From NCBI GenBank assembly GCA_037305845.1, contig CP147778.1, positions 1,984,001 to 2,048,000 of the forward strand: DNA of 64,000 nucleotides, given 5' to 3'. Position numbers and translations under genes: made by a program. The DNA is from Candidatus Freyarchaeum deiterrae. GTDB lineage: Archaea > Asgardarchaeota > Jordiarchaeia > Jordiarchaeales > Jordiarchaeaceae. The notes beneath the pieces were generated by a model that saw only the letters and a program-made list of their open reading frames with translations, was not told the origin of the DNA and did no database searches. Positions 4,435 to 55,797 of the stretch are shown here, piece after piece (the stretch's first letter is position 1; each line of letters begins with the position of its first letter).

Positions 4435-6231
4435 TTAACCTATTACTAGTTGGGGTTCCTTTCTAACATATTTTCCTTCGCCTTCAATAGTGTAGGACAA
4501 CGAAATTTCCTGTCCCGGCTCTATTCTCTGGAAGTTCCATGTGAGTATCAACTCGTTAATGTTCTCTGTTACCTTGGGTTGTACTTCTTCTGGTTTCCAC
4601 TCAACCAAATTAAAACCTTGTGGGATAAAGTCTTTTACGGTAACGTTTGTCATGCTTACTTCTCCGGTGTTCACAATAACTAGTGGGACTACGTGTTGCC
4701 CTGCTTTCGCTCCTGGAGATACAGCTTCTTTGTATATCTTAACTGCACGACGAGTGTACTTAATTCCAATTTTTGGAGGTTTGCTTTCCAGCTCCGAGTA
4801 CTCCACGTCAGGACCAGGTTGTGTTGTGTTGCCAGTTGCTCTCAATGGAGTTGGATAACTCTTTTCAGGTTTTGGCTCCCAAGCCATCATTGGGTAAACG
4901 CATTTAACGGTTTGCCCCGGGTTTATCCCTCTCACGAGGCTTTTCATATTCTTGACGAAAACTGTTAATCCATGTCTTACTGTGGAGTTGTCGTCGTTAG
5001 GATTTGTTATAATCTCTATACCTTGAGATAATTCTTTTTCATTCACATAAATTTTTACACGTTCGTGTGCGGGGGGTTTAAAGTCCTCTGGGATAGTATC
5101 GTATATTGTCACCTGATCTAGTGCGGCGCTTCCTATATTTGATATTAAAACCGTTACAGTCATCGGTGTTTTATCATAGGCGTCTACTTGGGCTGGTGTG
5201 AAAGTTTTTTCCGCTAGAATTCTCTCCACTGGAAGCATAGTATCCTCCTTGGTAATCTTAGAATACACGTGGCGGGTTACCTCTTTAACTGCTTTGTAAT
5301 CGATGTTTGTTTCGAAGACGGGCATTGTGGGGCTTTTGACGTTAAACTTGTACTCCCACGATTGTTTTGGAGGAACATCCTTGTTAGGTTCCAAAGAAAG
5401 AAGCTGTTCTTTCTTCTCTCCCTTGATTTGGAAGATTTCCACCTTTAGGAGTCTTTGTAGAAATTCACTCGTGTTCAAAAACTCGATTGTACAATCCCAT
5501 GTTGATGGGTGTGAAGGCGACTCTGATGGTTCTATTGCAAATCTACTATCTGAAATTGCTGTGATGTCCGGGTTTAGCAGTGACCTAGTTCTATCTTTAA
5601 TGTGGTATTCTGCTATAACTTTGCCTGCACCAATTGGTTCTATGGATTCGGCAGTGATTCTTAATTTAACAACCAGAGTGGCGTCGCTTCCTGCTGACAG
5701 TTCAAAATTCTTCCATACGACCTCTCTTGATTCCGATTCAAACTCAGCGGCTCCTGTATTCGGCGGCTCTATTTCTGGATCTCCAAAACCCTTTGGTATA
5801 ACTTTTCGTATTTTTATACTGTCAATATATGTATCAGTTGGGTTGCTGACTGTGATAGTGCAACTTACAGGCATCGGTCTCTTGTACACTAAGGCCCAGT
5901 TAATTTGCTCATCTTCATCACAAGTGTCCACTGTTTCCTTCAATTTGAGAACTGTTTCCTCAACAGGCACATTATACTCTTTCGCCCAATTGTTACCTGC
6001 TAAGACTGCACCAACTGGTATAACGCTCTCTTTCAATGATGTGGTTTCTATGCCTCCGACTCGAATTTCACCGTTCCATATCCTGTTTTTTGAACTCTGG
6101 TTATTAACGGAGATAACTCCTCTTACTTTTAGGCTTTTAATCTCATGTTTCTCGGTTAAAACGCAGTCTTCGTTCTCAGTCACATCCAAGTTTAATTTTA
6201 AACCTTCTGAGCTCACAATTGTTTCCCTCAC
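4435..6231 (-). CDS. All-beta protein: mu-adaptin homology (MHD)-like N-terminal region plus DUF11/Ig-like repeats
   Basis: LNLDVTE..DCVL......LKVRGVI and IPKGFGDPEI....GAAEF..ESREVVWK.FEL resemble MHD strands. C-terminal V.N.G......V.I.D.IP.GF repeats. No signal peptide. Confidence 0.6.
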   Translation of the reverse strand: MRETIVSSEGLKLNLDVTENEDCVLTEKHEIKSLKVRGVISVNNQSSKNRIWNGEIRVGGIETTSLKESVIPVGAVLAGNNWAKEYNVPVEETVLKLKETVDTCDEDEQINWALVYKRPMPVSCTITVSNPTDTYIDSIKIRKVIPKGFGDPEIEPPNTGAAEFESESREVVWKNFELSAGSDATLVVKLRITAESIEPIGAGKVIAEYHIKDRTRSLLNPDITAISDSRFAIEPSESPSHPSTWDCTIEFLNTSEFLQRLLKVEIFQIKGEKKEQLLSLEPNKDVPPKQSWEYKFNVKSPTMPVFETNIDYKAVKEVTRHVYSKITKEDTMLPVERILAEKTFTPAQVDAYDKTPMTVTVLISNIGSAALDQVTIYDTIPEDFKPPAHERVKIYVNEKELSQGIEIITNPNDDNSTVRHGLTVFVKNMKSLVRGINPGQTVKCVYPMMAWEPKPEKSYPTPLRATGNTTQPGPDVEYSELESKPPKIGIKYTRRAVKIYKEAVSPGAKAGQHVVPLVIVNTGEVSMTNVTVKDFIPQGFNLVEWKPEEVQPKVTENINELILTWNFQRIEPGQEISLSYTIEGEGKYVRKEPQLVIG

Positions 6232-7388: not shown

Positions 7389-7964
7389 TTGGAAGAAAAA
7401 TCAAATAAAGACAGCTCCTCGCATCGAGAGCCTGTTGATGACGCGTCTCTGGATAAGCAGTTTGACAAAGTTGAAGAAATAACTGTGATTGAACTAGAAG
7501 AACTAGCCGACGCACTAGAGTTCATTTTGGATTTGCAGCCACATGTTTGTGTAATCCGTGGTATCGACTATCCCTGTATACTATGCGAATTAAAATGTGA
7601 CGTCGGGAAATGTCAAGAGATAAAAATAATGCGGGGAAAAGGATTAAAAACGATTAACAGTTCCACACTCTCCCTAAATTTCGAAAAGAGGGACTCGTTT
7701 GAAGAATACTTGATCAGTAAATTAGTTCGAGAGCTAACTCGGGAGAAGCTTAACATTATTGACCCAGAAGAGGGTTACGATATAACATTCTTTTTCAAGC
7801 ATGAAGACCGATGGAGAAAAAATGAAATTATAGTTTTCATACTCGGGCTATTTGACAGAGTAAAAATACTTATGCCTGAAGCTAAGGCGTTAGTAAATAC
7901 CTGGATAAGAAATAAAGTGAAGGGTTTTGAGAGAGAAGAGACTCTTAAAAAAATGAAAGAGTAA
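7389..7964 (+). CDS. Arp2/3 complex subunit 4 (ARPC4/p20)-like protein
   Basis: INSSTLSL.FEKRDSFEEYL..KL and PEEGYDITFFF match ARPC4 INSVRVSI.VKQADEIEKIL..KF and PVEGYDISFLI; EAKALVNTWIR...GF matches EMKLSVNARAR...EF. Confidence 0.75.
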   Translation: MEEKSNKDSSSHREPVDDASLDKQFDKVEEITVIELEELADALEFILDLQPHVCVIRGIDYPCILCELKCDVGKCQEIKIMRGKGLKTINSSTLSLNFEKRDSFEEYLISKLVRELTREKLNIIDPEEGYDITFFFKHEDRWRKNEIIVFILGLFDRVKILMPEAKALVNTWIRNKVKGFEREETLKKMKE

Positions 7965-8075: not shown

Positions 8076-9344
8076 TTACTCTTCGGGTAGTTTATTCTCA
8101 GAAGCCGAGGCTCCCTCTGTTGCTTTCCCAGTTAGTGCGTTTATTTGCTGCTGTATGGTTCTCATTTCTCCACGAATTCTTGCTCTCTGCGCAGCATACT
8201 CAGCTTTCTGTAAAGCTCCAGCCTGGTACCTTTTAGTAATATAGTCTAACTGGCTCCCAAGAGAGCGCGACCTCGACTCTAAGCTCTCTAACTCTTCGCG
8301 TTTGGCTGCATCAGTCAGTAGAGGTGAGGTTGCTGGTATCGAACGTGTGCTCGTACGAATTGTTTCAGAAATCTTTCCTTGAGAAAGCACCCTCGCTGCA
8401 AAGTCTCTAAATTCATCGAGAAACACATCAAATCTCTTTCTCAGAGTAACAACTTCACTCATTAACTTGTCAATTTCAGGCGTGTAGGCAGCAGCTATTG
8501 ATTGCGTTGTTTTTGCCCTGCCTTGCAAAGGTCTTGTAGCCAGAACTGGTTTAACTCTTTCCTCAACCAACTCCTCCTCTTCCTCCTCCTGTGGAGCACT
8601 TGATTCTGTTACCTCTTCTTCCACTACTTTTTTAGAGGCTGGTTTGGTGGGGGCGACTTTGGGTTTCGAAGGTATAACCACCCATTTAAATATATTTTTT
8701 AACAGAACCATATTTTGTGAAGTATTAAGTCCACCCATTATTCGATCCCTGAACATTTCATACGATCCTAGGGCAACAACTTTTCCGTTCCCATAATTAG
8801 AAACAGCCAAAACAGGGGCATCGGGCGGCTGTGCAGTTCTGCTTGTGATAGCTAATGCTTCTGCTTCTCCCACGAGTTTTATGCTGCAGCCCGCGGAATA
8901 AGCTAATTCTGATAGTCCTTCGGTTACAGGGTGATCCTTAAATTTCGTAATTTTGGGAAGGTTTTCCATACCTAGATTTTGTCTCTCATCAAATAACTGA
9001 TTATTCTGAAATGATACTCCAAAATTCTCGGCTAACTCGTTAAGATTGGTTCTCAGTCCGGGATCACCGCCCGCATGGCTTAATAAAACAACTCCACCAC
9101 CTCTGGAAACAAAATCTAAAACAGTTCTGATTTCTGCGGGTTGTATCTTAGACTGATCTGGACAAGGAAAAACTAACGCATTGAAATCCTTCAATTTATC
9201 CAGGGTGATTGGAAAATCAACAAATCTTATGCTCTGAATACCCTCAGTTTCCAATACTCCTTTGACAGCTGAATAACTAGTAGTGATACGTCCGCGTTCC
9301 TTTTGCGTTTCATCAAAAAGGACACGCCACTTAATTTCAGCCAA
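8076..9344 (-). CDS. GIFT (GldG/IFT52 N-terminal, GATase-like) domain protein with acidic linker, coiled coil and C-terminal helical hairpin
   Basis: VLFDE, ITLDKL, GGGVVLL..AGG....TNLNEL.E.FGV, GKVVALGS.EMF.D, N..LL.NIF.W. GGAGG precedes TTG at 9344/9347. Confidence 0.75.
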   Translation of the reverse strand: MAEIKWRVLFDETQKERGRITTSYSAVKGVLETEGIQSIRFVDFPITLDKLKDFNALVFPCPDQSKIQPAEIRTVLDFVSRGGGVVLLSHAGGDPGLRTNLNELAENFGVSFQNNQLFDERQNLGMENLPKITKFKDHPVTEGLSELAYSAGCSIKLVGEAEALAITSRTAQPPDAPVLAVSNYGNGKVVALGSYEMFRDRIMGGLNTSQNMVLLKNIFKWVVIPSKPKVAPTKPASKKVVEEEVTESSAPQEEEEEELVEERVKPVLATRPLQGRAKTTQSIAAAYTPEIDKLMSEVVTLRKRFDVFLDEFRDFAARVLSQGKISETIRTSTRSIPATSPLLTDAAKREELESLESRSRSLGSQLDYITKRYQAGALQKAEYAAQRARIRGEMRTIQQQINALTGKATEGASASENKLPEE

Positions 9345-9538
9345 CAATAAACCTCCTATCATCGGATGAGTAAACACTTTCAACCTATTTTTCAAAAGGC
9401 TCTAAAAAAATATTTTAGAACTAACCTTTTAACCTTTTTTTCTATTCAGGTATTTAAGAACCTCAAATAATATTTTGTCGCTCATAATTAATAAAATTTT
9501 ACTATTTTTACGCAATATATTTCCATGGTGAATCCCAA

Positions 9539-9961
9539 TCAAAGGTCTATAAGGAAAAGACCTGTAGCTTCATCCTCGCTACGATTAATTTTTCTACTGA
9601 TTTCCATCAAAAATATTTCACAAGTAATAGACACAATACACCCATTTAAAACATGCCCACCTAATGCTCTTCCCTCCCTATCACCAACCACTATGTGGGC
9701 GTGAACTGTGGCTTTCCCCTCGCGATAGGAGATGTTCCCAATACAAGAAACCACTTCCAAATCAGATTTCAATTTTATGGATTTATATTTGTCTTTATCG
9801 AAAAAGCCTATATTAGCTTCGGATAAGGCTCCAATAGCGCTGAAAAATCCGGAAATCAAATCATATTTTTTGGCCAGCGTCTCAAGAGAATCCAGTAAAT
9901 CCTCTCCCTTTTCCAGTTTCGCTACAATAATTCTTTTACTGGAAGATTCTATTGATTTCAT
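9539..9961 (-). CDS. PPC/DUF296 domain protein
   Basis: L..GEDL, AIGAL, EVVSCIGN, HAH, GGH; RBS-supported ATG at 9961. Confidence 0.9.
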   Translation of the reverse strand: MKSIESSSKRIIVAKLEKGEDLLDSLETLAKKYDLISGFFSAIGALSEANIGFFDKDKYKSIKLKSDLEVVSCIGNISYREGKATVHAHIVVGDREGRALGGHVLNGCIVSITCEIFLMEISRKINRSEDEATGLFLIDL

Positions 9962-10172
9962 CTCCTTCACCTTTCGCGACGTAGAGTGCAACTTATTAAT
10001 TTTTAGGCATTTCTTATTTTTTAATTGAATAATTTCTTTACCATTCGGTAGACTTATTTATGTTTTTACACTTGAATAATTTGATTTTATAATTCTGTTT
10101 AAATGGCGCCCTCAAATTAAAACGAATCCTAATAAATAGCACCCGTCAAGAGGTAAAAGCTGGGAGAAAAAC

Positions 10173-12875
10173 ATGTCTGAAAGGGTAGGTCTGCTAAAAT
10201 ATATACCATCTACTCCTGCCCAGAAAACCGAAGACCCCCTAAAAAAAGCAGAAGAAGCAGAGACGGGTCTCGTAGAGACTAACGAAGAAGAAGAGGGCAG
10301 TGAAGAAGAAGAGGAAGAAGCAGAAGAAGTAGAGTTCAAGGGTCTGCCTTACTTCTGCCCAGAAAATTATGAACCTGGATCACTGCTATCAGTAGAATAT
10401 GATGGAAAAAATAACCTTGCCTTCGCACGTTTATACGATTCTAAAAACAAGAGACTCTTTTGTTGGTATGATAACACCAACCATCATCCCTATTGTTATT
10501 CTGATCTCGACGAAGAAAAATTAAGAGCATTCAGAAACGGTCAAGTGGTAAAACACAAAGGTTTTCTAGGCTTAGAAGAAGTTGAGAAAATCGACCTCTT
10601 ATTAGATAAGCCTAAGAAAATGACAAAAATTTTGGCAACAGATCCACTTGCGATAGGTGGCACCAGTAGTTCCATAAGAGAAATCCTGCCCAAAGCCTGG
10701 GAAGCAAAAATCAGATACCATGATAACTTTATATTCGATAAAGACCTGATTCCCGGACTCTTCTACAGAATAGAAAAAGGGAATATAACTCCAGCCCCAT
10801 ATGAAATCCCTACTTCATTAAAAAAAGAATTAGAACTGGCTCTCGGAAACGAAGAAGCACCAGAATTCGAGGATGTGCTAAACGAATTCCTACCCCTGTT
10901 TCTAACACCAGTGCCCGATATTAAAAGAGCCGCCCTAGACATCGAAGTTTACGCACCCATAAGAGACAGGATACCCGACTCAACAGCGGCGGAAAATCAA
11001 GTAATATGCGTGTCTCTAGTTTCCAGCGAAAACGCGAACATAATTTTTCTTCTAAAGAGAAAAGAAGTTGAAACTGGAGATAAACCAAAAGACTTCCCCA
11101 AAGATGCTAGGATAGAGTACTTCGAAAATGAAGCTCAAATGTTAACAAGAGTTTTCAGAGCAATGAGCGATTATCCCATAATCCTCACCTTCAACGGAGA
11201 TAACTTCGACCTGAGATACCTCTACAATAGAGCTCTTAGACTCGGCATCAAGAACGAAGAGATACCCATAGTTCTAACCAAAGAATTCGCCTACATCTCA
11301 ACCTCCATCCACATTGATTTATACCGGTTTTTCCACAACCGTTCCATCCAAGTTTACGCCTTTTCAGACCGCTACAAAGAAGAAACACTGGACGCCATCG
11401 CCAAAGCCCTCTTAAACATCGGAAAAATCAGCCTCGACAAATCAATCCACGAGCTGTCACTACTCGATCTAGCTTACTACTGCTGGGGAGACTCATACAT
11501 TACACTGAAATTAACCCAATTCGACGATAATCTGGTCATGAAACTAATAATCCTACTCATGCGCATCTCCCGCCTCTCAATGGAGGACCTAACAAGACAA
11601 GGCGTCTCCTCATGGATAAAAAACCTCTTCTACTACGAACACCGCAGAAGAAACTACCTCATACCCCTCCCAGAGGAGATAAACCGCATAAAAGGAATAG
11701 GCCAAACAAAAGCAATCATCAAAGACAAAAAATTCAGAGGAGCCATCGTAGTCGAACCAGAAGCCGGAGTCCACTTCGACGTAGCCGTACTCGACTTCGC
11801 CTCCCTATACCCCAGCATCATAAAAGAATACAACTTGAGCTACGAAACCGTAAGATGCCCACACAACGAATGCAGAACAAACATAGTCCCAGAAACAAAC
11901 CACTGGGTATGCACAAAACGAAAAGGGATAACATCCATAATAATCGGCTTCCTAAGAGACATACGCATAAAATGGTTCAAACCAAGATCCAAATCCAGCT
12001 CACTGAAAGAAGAAGAGAGAAAATGGAACGCCATAATCGAAAGAGCCCTAAAAGTCTACCTAAACGCCAGCTACGGCGTCTTCGGCAATGAGCCATTTCC
12101 CTTTTACTGCTTACCAGTAGCCGAAAGCACCGCAGCCATCGGAAGATACGCCATCCAGCAAGCAATAACCAAAGCAAAAAACCTAGGACTACACGTAATC
12201 TACGGCGACACGGACAGCGTCTTCATAAAAAACCCCTCAGAAAAAAATATCACAGAACTAAGAAACTGGACCAAACAAGAACTCAGAGTAGACCTCGACG
12301 TCGATTCACGATATCGCTACCTATGTCTTAGCGAGAGAAAAAAGAACTATCTTGGGGTTTACATGGACGGGTCTGTGAATATTAAGGGTCTCACCGGGAA
12401 AAAGAGGAACACTCCACAATTCGCTCAACAAGCCTTCCTCAAAATGGTGGAAACTCTAAGCCATGTTCAGTCTGTAAACGACTTTGATAAAGCCAAGAAA
12501 GAAATCCAAGAAATTGCAAAAACCTGCTATAACAAAATAAAAAACAGGGAATTCAGCTTAGAAGATTTCGCATTCCACGTTATGCTGAGCAAAAATCTTT
12601 CTTCCTATACCAAGACCACACCGCAGCATGTTAAAGCTGCTAGGCAACTGAGTAAAAACGGGAAAGAGCTCAAACCCGGCGATATAATTTCTTTCGTAAA
12701 AGTCAGGGGTAAGGACGGAGTGCGACCGGTTGAACTTGCCGTTAAGGAGGAGATTGATACCGATAAATATAAAGAATATCTAAAAACTACATTCGACCAA
12801 ATATTAGATAGTCTCGGAATCAGCTTTGATAGAATTGTAGGAATAACAAAACTCGAAAGCTGGATGTCGGGTTAA
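10173..12875 (+). CDS. polB1: Family B DNA polymerase, PolB1 type, with acidic N-terminal extension
   Basis: Exonuclease DIEV and FNGDNFD; polymerase DFASLYPSII, K.YLNASYG, YGDTDS; KGLTGKKRNTP typical of the PolB1 clade; PIP-like C-terminus. Confidence 0.95.
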   Translation: MSERVGLLKYIPSTPAQKTEDPLKKAEEAETGLVETNEEEEGSEEEEEEAEEVEFKGLPYFCPENYEPGSLLSVEYDGKNNLAFARLYDSKNKRLFCWYDNTNHHPYCYSDLDEEKLRAFRNGQVVKHKGFLGLEEVEKIDLLLDKPKKMTKILATDPLAIGGTSSSIREILPKAWEAKIRYHDNFIFDKDLIPGLFYRIEKGNITPAPYEIPTSLKKELELALGNEEAPEFEDVLNEFLPLFLTPVPDIKRAALDIEVYAPIRDRIPDSTAAENQVICVSLVSSENANIIFLLKRKEVETGDKPKDFPKDARIEYFENEAQMLTRVFRAMSDYPIILTFNGDNFDLRYLYNRALRLGIKNEEIPIVLTKEFAYISTSIHIDLYRFFHNRSIQVYAFSDRYKEETLDAIAKALLNIGKISLDKSIHELSLLDLAYYCWGDSYITLKLTQFDDNLVMKLIILLMRISRLSMEDLTRQGVSSWIKNLFYYEHRRRNYLIPLPEEINRIKGIGQTKAIIKDKKFRGAIVVEPEAGVHFDVAVLDFASLYPSIIKEYNLSYETVRCPHNECRTNIVPETNHWVCTKRKGITSIIIGFLRDIRIKWFKPRSKSSSLKEEERKWNAIIERALKVYLNASYGVFGNEPFPFYCLPVAESTAAIGRYAIQQAITKAKNLGLHVIYGDTDSVFIKNPSEKNITELRNWTKQELRVDLDVDSRYRYLCLSERKKNYLGVYMDGSVNIKGLTGKKRNTPQFAQQAFLKMVETLSHVQSVNDFDKAKKEIQEIAKTCYNKIKNREFSLEDFAFHVMLSKNLSSYTKTTPQHVKAARQLSKNGKELKPGDIISFVKVRGKDGVRPVELAVKEEIDTDKYKEYLKTTFDQILDSLGISFDRIVGITKLESWMSG

Positions 12876-53216: not shown

Positions 53217-53540
53217 TTAGATCTCAGGAACAATTCCGCCTAGAGCAAAGATTCTCTGCTTCTTGCTTGTTATTTCTCTATTCAGCTTCATTGCTTGGCT
53301 CATAAATTGGACATAGTTTCTGTCTCTGTCTTCTGGAGTAATTTTACCGTACATAAAATCAGAATCCATTTGTTGGAGTTGCTCCTGTATCTTATCTTTC
53401 TCCTTTTTCAATTGGTCTATCTCTGTCTTAAGTGAACCTATCTCATTTGCTTCCTTGGATGTAACTTTCACAGGTTCAATGGTTGGTCCGCCGCCGAAAA
53501 GGTTTCTGAAGAACGCTACTACTCTATCCATTATACCCAT
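53217..53540 (-). CDS. Small protein with N-terminal amphipathic helix and helical hairpin
   Basis: GGAGG before ATG 53540; MGIMDRVVAFFRNLFGGG, then a coiled coil with F.YGKITPED. Confidence 0.75.
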   Translation of the reverse strand: MGIMDRVVAFFRNLFGGGPTIEPVKVTSKEANEIGSLKTEIDQLKKEKDKIQEQLQQMDSDFMYGKITPEDRDRNYVQFMSQAMKLNREITSKKQRIFALGGIVPEI

Positions 53541-53561
53541 TCTATACAACCTCCAGTTATT

Positions 53562-54410
53562 TTACATGCCCATAACGGCTTTCCTAATTAATTCATAAAG
53601 CTTCATACGGTTCATAGGATCTATAGCGACAATACCCTGCGTTTCAGCTTCCAGAATTTGGCTTACTTTCTCCGGAGGCAAAGCGTTAGGTAAGTCTTGT
53701 TTATTAGCGATACTTAAAATATTAGCCTCAGGTTCAACCTCTCTAATTAAACGAACGAAGTACCGTGATTTTACGACGTTTTCCAAGGTGGAGTCTGTTA
53801 CTATAATGATTAGAGATGAGTCCCGAATAAACTTGTCCCACGTTAACTCGAATCTTTCTTGCCCCGCGAGATCCCAGCATATCAAAGATGTGTTTCCGAT
53901 TTTTGCTCCTTTAACACCCTTTATCCCAACCCCAATTGTGGGAATATGGTCTTTGGGGATTTCTTCCTCCCTTAAGAGCTTCAGAATGGTTGTTTTCCCT
54001 ACACCGCTGTAGCCTATCAGAGATATCTTTAGATATGTTATAGTTATGTCGTCGACAAGGGGTTCGAATGTTTGGAAATGTGAAGAATCACCTTTCCATT
54101 GTGGTATCTCCTTTTGAAAGTTTTTTAAGAAGGTGTCTTTTAGTGATTGTAGTTTTTCTTTCATTTCTTGTATTGTGTCACGTTTATCTGCTTCTAGAGT
54201 GAATACGATTCCATCTGAGTTGGAGTAGTATATTCTCGTGTTTTTCAGGTTCATAAATTCTATGTTTCCGTTTAGTCCCAGTTTTGGCACGAGTATTGCT
54301 AAGGCACTTACGAATATAGTTAGAATATCTGCTGCTATGTTAGTTTGTCCGTATCTTTTATGGAACATGGGATCTCCATTGGAATTTAGAATAGACACCT
54401 CTCTAATCAT
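53562..54410 (-). CDS. Longin domain fused to an Arf/Ras-superfamily small GTPase
   Basis: Longin MI..V.ILN..G..MF...Y ... F..F...VD.I; GTPase GYSGVGKTT, PTIG, WDLAGQERF, ANKQDLPNAL. Confidence 0.9.
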   Translation of the reverse strand: MIREVSILNSNGDPMFHKRYGQTNIAADILTIFVSALAILVPKLGLNGNIEFMNLKNTRIYYSNSDGIVFTLEADKRDTIQEMKEKLQSLKDTFLKNFQKEIPQWKGDSSHFQTFEPLVDDITITYLKISLIGYSGVGKTTILKLLREEEIPKDHIPTIGVGIKGVKGAKIGNTSLICWDLAGQERFELTWDKFIRDSSLIIIVTDSTLENVVKSRYFVRLIREVEPEANILSIANKQDLPNALPPEKVSQILEAETQGIVAIDPMNRMKLYELIRKAVMGM

Positions 54411-54424
54411 TTCCTTTTTTTCCT

Positions 54425-55501
54425 CTACATTGGGTAACTATCTCTTAGAGCTTTTAAATGCCATAATAACATTCTGGGAGGCTTAACCTGATCGTTATAC
54501 TGTTGACCTATCTGTTCCACTAGGTATTCCGGGAAGAATGTCATGATCTTGACATCAGTTTTCAGTGCTACATGCGACTTTTTCTCGACTTTGACATCCA
54601 TCGTGAAGCCTGCCTTATCGAAGGCATCCAGAATACTGTCTACCACTGATTTCTTTTTATCAAGTAATTTGTGAATCTCACCTTTGGGAAGAATGTTCTC
54701 TCTAAGTGCAACTAAGACATCGTAAGCGTCTGGATCCGCAAGTATCTTGGTTATTGTTTCTGTATCCTCAGGCGAAACAACATAGTCCCTAAAAAAGTTT
54801 TTAACTTCATCTAGATAATCAGAAGCAACCTCAGGACCCAGCTCTCCTGATTTAGCCTTTTTCACTATTCCTCTAGCGGGAACTCTAGCTATAAAAACAT
54901 CCCTTATTAGAAAGACGCATTGACTAGGTAGTCCTTCAACCCATTGTGTGGTGACAAGACCATTCTTGATAAGAGGCGCTAGGAACGAGTAGAGCTCTAT
55001 CGCTTTGACGTCTAGCTTGTGTTTCAGCCAGATTTCCAGATCTGACATAGTTGTGTTTCCTTCCTCTATTAATCGTTCGATTATATTCAATCTAACAGGA
55101 TCCGATAGAATCACAGACATTTTTTGTTCTTCACTCAGAGTTGGGAATCTGGTCAGTTTATTATACAAATCTTCTAATTCTGCCTTGTACGCCTCATTCT
55201 CTAACTTTGAGAATATGTGAGCTGCTATCTCAGCCAATCCGTCTTCATAATCATCCGCGTTCTCTTCCAATGTGAGAAGAAGCGCGACATAGTAGTTTAG
55301 TTCCCATCCTCCGTAATACGATGCGACGTTCAAGTTTCCGAGTCTCATTGACATAAATCCTGCGGCAGCCTCACCCATAGCGTGGGCTGTGTATATTTTC
55401 ATTATCTGGTCATCTGTTGTTCGTATGTGTTCAGGAAATCTCGCTTCTAGAACTGCTCCGAGACGGTTGTCCCATTTTACAACTATAATTCCGAAAGGCA
55501 T
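54425..55501 (-). CDS. uDENN/longin-like domain plus two winged-helix-like repeats
   Basis: GIIVVKWD..LGA.L...FP N-terminus typical of uDENN/NPR2-type longins; two D..(R/A)..I/V...L.E repeats with wHTH spacing. Confidence 0.65.
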   Translation of the reverse strand: MPFGIIVVKWDNRLGAVLEARFPEHIRTTDDQIMKIYTAHAMGEAAAGFMSMRLGNLNVASYYGGWELNYYVALLLTLEENADDYEDGLAEIAAHIFSKLENEAYKAELEDLYNKLTRFPTLSEEQKMSVILSDPVRLNIIERLIEEGNTTMSDLEIWLKHKLDVKAIELYSFLAPLIKNGLVTTQWVEGLPSQCVFLIRDVFIARVPARGIVKKAKSGELGPEVASDYLDEVKNFFRDYVVSPEDTETITKILADPDAYDVLVALRENILPKGEIHKLLDKKKSVVDSILDAFDKAGFTMDVKVEKKSHVALKTDVKIMTFFPEYLVEQIGQQYNDQVKPPRMLLWHLKALRDSYPM

Positions 55502-55797
55502 AATCAAACATCCTCTCTAGAGTTTTTTACATTAAGATTATTATGGTTACCTTTACGTATTTAAAATTTTAATACTTTTCTAAGCGTTTTGTACTAATCT
55601 CTTATTTTCATATGATTCGCTTTCCCGCAAAAGGTGGTAAAAAATTTGCGAAGTTTGTCTAATAATTTTTAGGGTAATGAGAATATAAGAACTTTTTCGT
55701 GCTTTTAAGTTGAATTTCAACAGAGTTCAGATGCATAGAGAGAAATAAAAACGATAACACAGTTCGCTATAACACATCTATAATCATTAATCAAAAA

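Follow-up and report, generated by a model that had tools for sequence, protein, structure and literature searches.

The window analyzed here is a stretch of 64,000 nucleotides from the genome of Candidatus Freyarchaeum deiterrae, an Asgard archaeon (contig CP147778.1, positions 1,984,001 to 2,048,000 of the forward strand), whose genome consists of one 3.58-Mb contig with a completeness rating of 100%. The minus strand of the window carries, at 8076-9344, a gene for a protein that joins an N-terminal GIFT domain, the domain with which the intraflagellar transport (IFT) subunit IFT52 also begins, to a C-terminal helical hairpin that resembles the steadiness boxes (SB) of the ESCRT-I subunits Vps23 and Vps28. 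We favor, with somewhat better than even confidence, the view that the protein is a soluble cytosolic scaffold or adaptor with a GIFT head, that it is widespread in Asgard archaea and that it oligomerizes through its hairpin. A preliminary description had gone further and proposed an archaeal precursor of an IFT subunit coupled to an ESCRT-I-like assembly module. Controls with other GIFT clades and with the wider hairpin class lowered both the IFT-specific and the ESCRT-specific parts of that proposal.

The gene and the architecture of its product

The longest open frame at the locus, 8076-9395 on the minus strand, encodes 439 amino acids from a TTG codon. The database copy of the protein (P0002, 422 amino acids) and all close relatives start at residue 18 of this frame, which is a TTG at 9344; the coordinates 8076-9344, as first described, are those of a real gene with a start that agrees with its relatives. 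The nearest named relatives are Freyarchaeota/Jordarchaeia. The sequencing runs that came up are all of DNA, from metagenomes of freshwater sediment and wetland, with no RNA run among them. The whole protein was modeled with AlphaFold2 (AF2) from a 78-sequence alignment, which gave a mean predicted local distance difference test score (pLDDT) of 82, and the tail was also modeled alone. All residue numbers count from the 439-residue frame. The gene and the parts of its product are the following:

8076..9344, minus strand: gene for the GIFT-hairpin protein, 422 amino acids from the TTG at 9344; the relatives and P0002 begin M/L-AEIKWRVLFDE
9352..9356, minus strand: GGAGG, a likely ribosome-binding site by its sequence, 7 nucleotides upstream of the TTG start
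8661..9329, minus strand: GIFT domain, residues 23-245, class I glutamine-amidotransferase-like / flavodoxin-like fold (Pfam; AF2 pLDDT above 90)
8499..8660, minus strand: acidic/Pro-rich disordered linker, residues 246-299 (AF2 pLDDT below 50 over 257-298)
8382..8498, minus strand: long "stalk" helix, residues 300-338 (helical in the whole-protein and tail-only AF2 models)
8313..8381, minus strand: second disordered stretch, from stalk helix to hairpin, residues 339-361 (AF2 pLDDT below 50)
8130..8312, minus strand: C-terminal helical hairpin, residues 362-422, of the steadiness-box/CdvA-like/SHOCT-like class (AF2 pLDDT 90-98; hhalign)
8076..8129, minus strand: disordered C-terminal end, residues 423-439, and stop codon (pLDDT below 50 over 430-439; not conserved)

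The protein is thus built of five parts in order, namely the GIFT domain, the first disordered linker, the long helix, a second and short disordered stretch and the hairpin, and the AF2 models bear out the layout of linker and helical tail given in the preliminary description. The linker differs in length and sequence among family members. The second disordered stretch falls below a pLDDT of 50 at residues 340-357 of the whole-protein model and at the equivalent positions (46-64) when the tail is modeled alone, and the hairpin that follows is an antiparallel pair of helices (362-391 and 397-422) of about 60 amino acids. There is no signal peptide or transmembrane segment, the highest 19-residue Kyte-Doolittle mean being only 0.98, which agrees with the earlier reading of a cytosolic GIFT-domain protein. 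The combination of head and tail is kept in nearly all full-length top-scoring relatives, and because both are conserved across the family the architecture is far beyond chance.

The C-terminal hairpin and its relatives

We compared the tail by hhalign with templates that were alignments built from Asgard genomes, with reversed templates and column shuffles serving as nulls. The tail matched the Asgard Vps23 SB with a probability of 94.7% (score 42.8), the Asgard Vps28 N-terminal hairpin with 93.9% (score 40.1) and the SB of an Asgard family of about 500 amino acids with 95.5% (score 45.8), a level comparable to the 95.6% (score 46.0) obtained for the Vps23 SB against the Vps28 hairpin itself; reversed templates scored 11-22 and column shuffles 7-15, at probabilities of 21% or less. 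A second hhalign comparison, with full-length SB alignments, picked exactly the SB columns (93.3% and 83.9%), and the best natural PDB sequence matches of the tail profile were to the yeast Vps28 hairpin (E 0.04-0.07). The resemblance to the Vps23/Vps28 hairpin that had been noticed from a string in the tail (residues 378-406, positions 8178-8264) therefore stands. The Asgard SB proteins, that is UEV-Vps23, Vps28 and the family of about 500 amino acids, share with the GIFT-hairpin protein a helix followed by a terminal hairpin with the pattern L..L...(F/Y)..G.(I/L)....Y; they differ from it in having a UEV, PH or Zn-ribbon domain where it has a GIFT head. Across 151 Asgard genomes the Pfam Vps23_core profile matched UEV-Vps23 and the family of about 500 amino acids, which is probably the Znr_CC_PH_SB family (cog.011556) of Makarova et al. 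2024 (PMC10936438).

The same hairpin is at least as near to proteins of other kinds. Its top profile match was the terminal hairpin of Asgard Zn-ribbon and CdvA-like coiled-coil proteins (96.1%, score 51.0), and bona fide Asgard SHOCT domains were matched at 91.1% (score 36.0). A VIA structural search with the tail-only AF2 model against 48,161 chains placed the yeast Vps23 SB at rank 1 (Z 9.4, root-mean-square deviation (rmsd) 2.4 over 65 residues), on a par with dozens of unrelated hairpins (Z 8-9), and the hairpin of the S. islandicus CdvA filament at rank 4 (Z 9.2, rmsd 1.1 A over 63 residues). When a hidden Markov model (HMM) of the tail was run against the 9004 open reading frames of the genome, Vps28 came in at rank 9 and Vps23 at rank 11, with eight other proteins above them; those above Vps28 comprise two beta-helix proteins with RING fingers, a CdvA-like Zn-ribbon protein (L058, the second-best match), two paralogs of 960 amino acids and others. 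By hhalign the hairpin of the L058 family is linked at 96% to SHOCT and likewise at 96% to the GIFT tail. No Pfam match to Vps23_core, VPS28 or Mod_r was found on the tail, nor one to SHOCT (PF09851), for which 5 of 19 relatives gave sub-threshold matches (best E 9e-4). Foldseek with the tail-only model returned nothing at E<=0.001, with human ribophorin I heading the list at a non-significant E.

The tail is a member of a broad hairpin class that bridges SB, CdvA-like and SHOCT hairpins, and not a marker of ESCRT-I. Because the tail HMM finds its motif in CdvA-like, RING and other proteins ahead of Vps28 and Vps23, the hairpin is better regarded as a generic assembly module, most plausibly one for oligomerization, than as the ESCRT-I-like module of the preliminary description. 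The proteins with a Zn-ribbon and a CdvA-like coiled coil (Pfam PF18822, such as L058) share the terminal hairpin with the GIFT-hairpin protein and differ in that their head is a Zn ribbon and their hairpins come in tandem; the GIFT tail has no match to Pfam CdvA.

It is unlikely that the protein is instead an accessory component of an assembly of the ESCRT-I or CdvA type. In that case the stalk and hairpin would dock beside the Vps23/Vps28 hairpins, in the position of eukaryotic Vps37, or onto Zn-ribbon/CdvA-like proteins, and the GIFT head would thereby be brought to sites of membrane remodeling. This would fit a tail as similar to the SBs as Vps23 is to Vps28, the yeast Vps28, yeast Vps23 and CdvA filament hairpins as best sequence and structural matches, and the failure to find any Mod_r/Vps37 in a genome rated 100% complete. 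It is opposed by the Pfam ESCRT-I profiles that miss the tail, by the eight genome proteins that beat Vps28 and Vps23 for the tail HMM, by the structural Z values tied with dozens of hairpins and by the family of about 500 amino acids, of which eight Vps23_core-matched candidates (about 490-580 amino acids) were checked as possible GIFT proteins and none carried a GIFT domain. The genomic evidence divides in the same manner. Our survey of gene context covered 46 Asgard loci, or about 13 family-level contexts, with neighbors that vary by lineage; ESCRT-I genes were nearby only in the Jordarchaeales relatives (family f2), where Vps28 and UEV-Vps23 are four genes upstream, so that the linkage is found in one of about 13 contexts, and in the source genome ESCRT-I lies about 97 kb from the GIFT gene. 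A co-fold of the tail (residues 295-439) with Vps23 150-265 and Vps28 1-100 scored 0.02 against a mark of 0.32, which counts neither way on binding. Identity as an ESCRT-I subunit is not supported.

Several other hairpins were seen along the way. Prometheoarchaeum OST1/ribophorin I (8whn) takes rank 3 of the VIA search with the tail-only model (m80ac9b7a4aa3) through its cytoplasmic hairpin (Z 9.3, 19% identity). The best and eighth-best genome matches of the tail HMM, G000:C1:345941-351013 (L057) and 3413988-3415961 (L064), are large beta-helix (NosD-like) proteins that end with the hairpin of the GIFT tail (G-K-L-T..EY), a Zn ribbon and a RING finger, in that order, and L058 (G000:C1:1098813-1099604) is a Zn-ribbon protein with tandem hairpins that passes the Pfam CdvA threshold at 36 bits and matches SHOCT weakly. 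The family of about 500 amino acids with a C-terminal SB (L048, L049, L051-L056; up to 31 bits to Vps23_core) is present in f12 and other Asgard families, most of which have no GIFT-hairpin protein. Within the window itself, at 53217-55507 on the minus strand, a 110-residue coiled-coil protein with a hairpin-like G-K-I-T motif adjoins an Arf/Roc-type GTPase with a 125-residue N-terminal extension and a 360-residue protein with no Pfam match; the 53217-53549 protein is matched by the tail HMM at only E=1.

The GIFT head and its match to IFT52

The head passes the Pfam thresholds for IFT52_GIFT (51-54 bits, cut-off 27.2) and for DUF4350 (PF14258; 32.8-34.9 bits, cut-off 30.4), and falls under that for ABC_transp_aux (29.6 bits, cut-off 34.7). 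It contains the motifs ITLDKL, GGGV..GGD..TNLNELAENFG, PPDAPVLA, GKVVALGSYEMFRD and N..IFKW, and an HMM alignment places all of these on Chlamydomonas IFT52. Residues F27, D28, R34, G35, C78, G109-G110-D111, N117, D136, N140, G210-S211, F215 and G221-G222 are among those invariant in the family, and P79-D80, S106-H107-A108, G169-C170-S171, E213, R216 and D217 are nearly so. With Foldseek the GIFT head matched the N-terminal domain of IFT52 (IFT52N) at E 4e-19 and a TM-score of 0.80-0.88, ahead of STM3548 and OST48/Wbp1 (5e-10), and with VIA it matched IFT52N at Z 29.4 and 28.4 (the best with rmsd 2.0 A over 217 residues and 24% identity), whereas OST48 reached Z 20-22, STM3548 and S1P about 19 and true amidotransferases (Pdx2, TrpG) about 14. 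A profile of the Asgard clade found IFT52 in the PDB at E 8e-21 (77.6 bits). IFT52 is the nearest solved structure to the GIFT head, within a PDB in which the GIFT clades of GldG/DUF4350 type used for comparison have no structures. For this reason outgroup controls were built.

A tree of 200 GIFT domains separated the cytosolic Asgard clade from three outgroup clades: X1 holds PKD/transglutaminase giants, X2 multi-GIFT proteins (a TIR domain in one of them) and X3 small "GldG family" proteins. Most proteins of X1 and X2 are exported or anchored in the membrane, and most of X3 have no hydrophobic segments. The consensus sequences of all three, two of which are mostly exported or multi-domain clades, bear the same "IFT52" motifs, so that the motifs are general to GIFT domains; those named in the preliminary description are all present and do align to IFT52, with one spacer off by one residue, but are not specific to it. 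Scores against IFT52 tell the same story. The X1, X2 and X3 profiles reached PDB IFT52 with 76.7, 87.6 and 76.7 bits, respectively, next to the 77.6 bits of the Asgard clade, and Pfam IFT52_GIFT passes on proteins with a type IX secretion system (T9SS) tag, PKD or TIR at 34-73 bits, a range that overlaps the 47-70 bits of the Asgard clade. Among structural neighbors in the ESM Atlas, Actinomycetota DUF4350 proteins had TM values of 0.92-0.93 and eukaryotic IFT52 0.88-0.89. By these three proxies the head groups with generic prokaryotic GIFT/DUF4350 proteins, one of two outcomes that the preliminary description had named as unfavorable to its proposal; as to the other, the tail is more than a plain SHOCT. 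The DUF4350 (arCOG01314) and GldG-type GIFT proteins are exported or membrane-anchored (PMC5898192). The Asgard protein shares the domain and motifs with these prokaryotic GIFT proteins (DUF4350, GldG/ABC_transp_aux) and is distinguished by the absence of a signal peptide or transmembrane segment and by its helical tail.

The comparison with IFT52 itself (OSM-6/BLD1; Pfam PF23355; PDB 5FMR, 5FMS, 8BD7) shows agreement in fold, in the N-terminal position of the GIFT domain, in the disordered linker and in the cytosolic location, and the motifs GG...S.GG(D/E)...TN.N...FG...ND and G(K/R)...GS..F.D are common to both. In contrast, C78, H107 and C170, which are invariant or nearly so in the Asgard clade, are missing from IFT52 in the HMM alignment, and other GIFT clades, mostly exported ones included, are just as similar to IFT52. 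The central region of IFT52 binds IFT70/IFT88 and its C-terminal domain binds IFT46, its IFT-B1 partner. Neither IFT52_central nor Itf52_C (PF23352, PF21178) matched the protein or any other part of the genome, IFT46 (PF12317) had no match at E<=1 in the complete genome, and the tail showed no similarity to IFT52 C-terminal regions by Pfam or Foldseek. Pfam matches of the tail to IFT57 and SMC, at 15-16 bits where the cut-offs are 40 or more, were rejected as coiled-coil noise. The head is an IFT52-like GIFT domain; on the proxies used, no measure marks the Asgard family as the nearest prokaryotic relative of IFT52, and the protein does not belong to the IFT52 family proper.

All organism-named proteins among 88 word-indexed homologs are Asgard (Frey/Jord, Loki, Thor, Hel and Hod labels). 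An exhaustive profile search returned 5055 GIFT proteins at E<=0.001, of which 118 were at E<=1e-30; among the 150 matches listed, the 12 with an organism name are all Asgard, one protein has a bacterial-type T9SS sorting tail, and the matches listed and examined, all scoring above eukaryotic IFT52, include no identifiable IFT52. At E<=1e-35 the family is present in 87 of the 151 Asgard genomes sampled, and 61 of the 72 high-quality genomes have it; the cultured Lokiarchaeum ossiferum has an ortholog, NEF87_003477. One lineage has a Ras-like GTPase in place of the tail: P0087 (locus L019, 6001-7416) is a GIFT domain with a C-terminal Ras-family GTPase, and together with P0131, to which it is 67% identical and which comes from an independent sample, it is represented on 5 contigs.

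It is distinctly unlikely, in our judgment, that the family is the direct archaeal ancestor (ortholog) of eukaryotic IFT52, with GIFT head, linker and helical dimerization module forming a pre-ciliary core subunit of IFT-B1. Such an origin would account for IFT52N being the closest solved structure by far (Z 29.4/28.4 against 22 for OST48), for the profile match at E 8e-21, for the shared cytosolic layout with its N-terminal GIFT domain and disordered linker at similar length and for the Asgard lineage of the protein, and the GIFT-Ras fusions, with an Arf-like GTPase divergent from the GIFT gene at one locus, recall the GTPases of IFT-B. Against it stand three other GIFT clades that match IFT52 equally well or better, overlapping Pfam and Atlas TM values, the absence of C78, H107 and C170 from IFT52, a tail unlike its C-terminal regions and a genome in which IFT52_central, Itf52_C and IFT46 were not found; the family was also not found in several Asgard families. 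The claim of an archaeal IFT precursor is accordingly not sustained, and an Asgard protein that carries the Pfam label "IFT52 GIFT" should not for that reason be taken as a sign of an archaeal IFT component.

The genome also encodes a weaker GIFT-like paralog, at G000:C1:1716607-1717398 (L002 1051-1842, minus strand), with 21.7 bits to IFT52_GIFT and a C-terminal Zn ribbon.

Genomic neighborhood and proposed function

The genes upstream of the GIFT gene in the window are:

9539-9991, minus strand: PCC/DUF296-domain gene, directly upstream of the GIFT gene and co-directional
10173-12875, plus strand: family-B DNA polymerase (PolB), divergent, beyond the PCC gene

Across the surveyed loci, the conserved neighbors serve replication and repair and do not include ESCRT genes. 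The family of the source genome (f1) together with f2 and f7 has a Zn-ribbon gene, a gene of unknown function and a divergent PolB, sometimes with PCC and HIT genes, and then the GIFT gene, so that the order PolB-(PCC)-GIFT recurs in three Asgard families with PolB one or two genes away; the gene of the GTPase-fusion lineage is convergent with PolB. An ATP-dependent DNA ligase is directly downstream and co-directional in f4, f5, f18 and f27, with a median gap of 28 nucleotides, and a convergent HerA-Mre11-Rad50 operon ends beside the GIFT gene in f7 and f26 (loci L108-L110, L112, L121, L123 and L126 cover the ligase and HerA contexts). In Loki-like families the order is a GPN-loop GTPase, a GCD1-like nucleotidyltransferase and then the GIFT gene. 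A "predicted glutamine amidotransferase", arCOG03639, which may be linked to the GIFT family, adjoins GCD1 and CdvB in Ignicoccus (PMC10936438 supplement).

A part in DNA replication or repair, such as that of a scaffold acting with PolB, DNA ligase or HerA-Mre11-Rad50, would explain why these genes recur beside it across the 46 loci. We give this only a slim chance, since the gene order is shared by descent in related lineages and so represents few independent events, the Loki-like families have the GPN-loop GTPase and GCD1-like gene instead, and none of the protein's domains points to binding of DNA. A slimmer one falls to an enzyme with a GIFT/GATase1-like head, whose Cys, His and Asp residues would be catalytic or hold a metal and whose tail would only set the oligomeric state: C78, H107, D111, C170, S171, E213 and D217 do lie at strand C-termini and the fold is shared with Pdx2 and TrpG (Z about 14), but the canonical nucleophile elbow has no Cys (by sequence and AF2 secondary structure), the nearest solved relatives (IFT52, OST48, STM3548 and ThuA-like proteins) are not known amidotransferases and the neighboring genes give no substrate clue. 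Equally improbable is the joint reading, in which the family would be the direct pre-ciliary ancestor of IFT52 and would be plugged by its hairpin, or in one lineage by a fused Ras-like GTPase, into ESCRT-I/CdvA-type assemblies; were it true, the IFT-B core and ESCRT-type scaffolds would share an archaeal assembly logic.

We therefore return to the scaffold or adaptor with a GIFT head, for which a mechanism can be proposed. The polar residues conserved in the clade stand at the C-terminal ends of strands, namely FD(E) after beta1, CPD after beta3, SHAGGD after beta4 and GCS, and would be expected to line one pocket; the GIFT domain is for that reason proposed as a binding head for a ligand or partner. 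A flexible acidic/Pro-rich tether of about 50 residues would connect the head to a helical base consisting of one long helix and the terminal antiparallel hairpin. The hairpin most likely drives self- or hetero-association, so that several GIFT heads may be displayed on an oligomeric helical core. The lineage that has a Ras-like GTPase instead of the tail agrees with the idea of a modular head on which partner-recruiting tails can be exchanged. Four points weigh against this view. The pocket is read from the fold topology and not from coordinates, and the oligomeric state and the partner are things that we infer. The family is not universal, with no copy in 8 of the 27 sampled Asgard families (at least 3 genomes or 19 genomes: f12-f17, f21 and mostly f19), including none in the 19 genomes of f12. 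Finally, the PolB, DNA ligase and HerA-Mre11-Rad50 neighbors hint at a more specific role, which a scaffold leaves unexplained.

GIFT domains and steadiness-box hairpins are each known, and their conserved cytosolic combination in Asgard archaea is apparently undescribed, no paper on it having been found. If partners are found, the protein would be a new adaptor in the Asgard set of eukaryote-like assembly modules. Its tail joins the hairpins of ESCRT-I steadiness boxes, CdvA-like proteins, SHOCT and RING proteins into one continuum.

Two further genes lie downstream of the GIFT gene in the window:

7389-7964, plus strand: ARPC4-like gene, convergent with the GIFT gene (Pfam 30.5 bits, cut-off 22.2)
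4435-6231, minus strand: DUF11 protein with a weak mu-homology match, near the ARPC4-like gene

The ARPC4-like gene is downstream of the GIFT gene in both f1 and f2, a pairing that is kept in Jordarchaeales.

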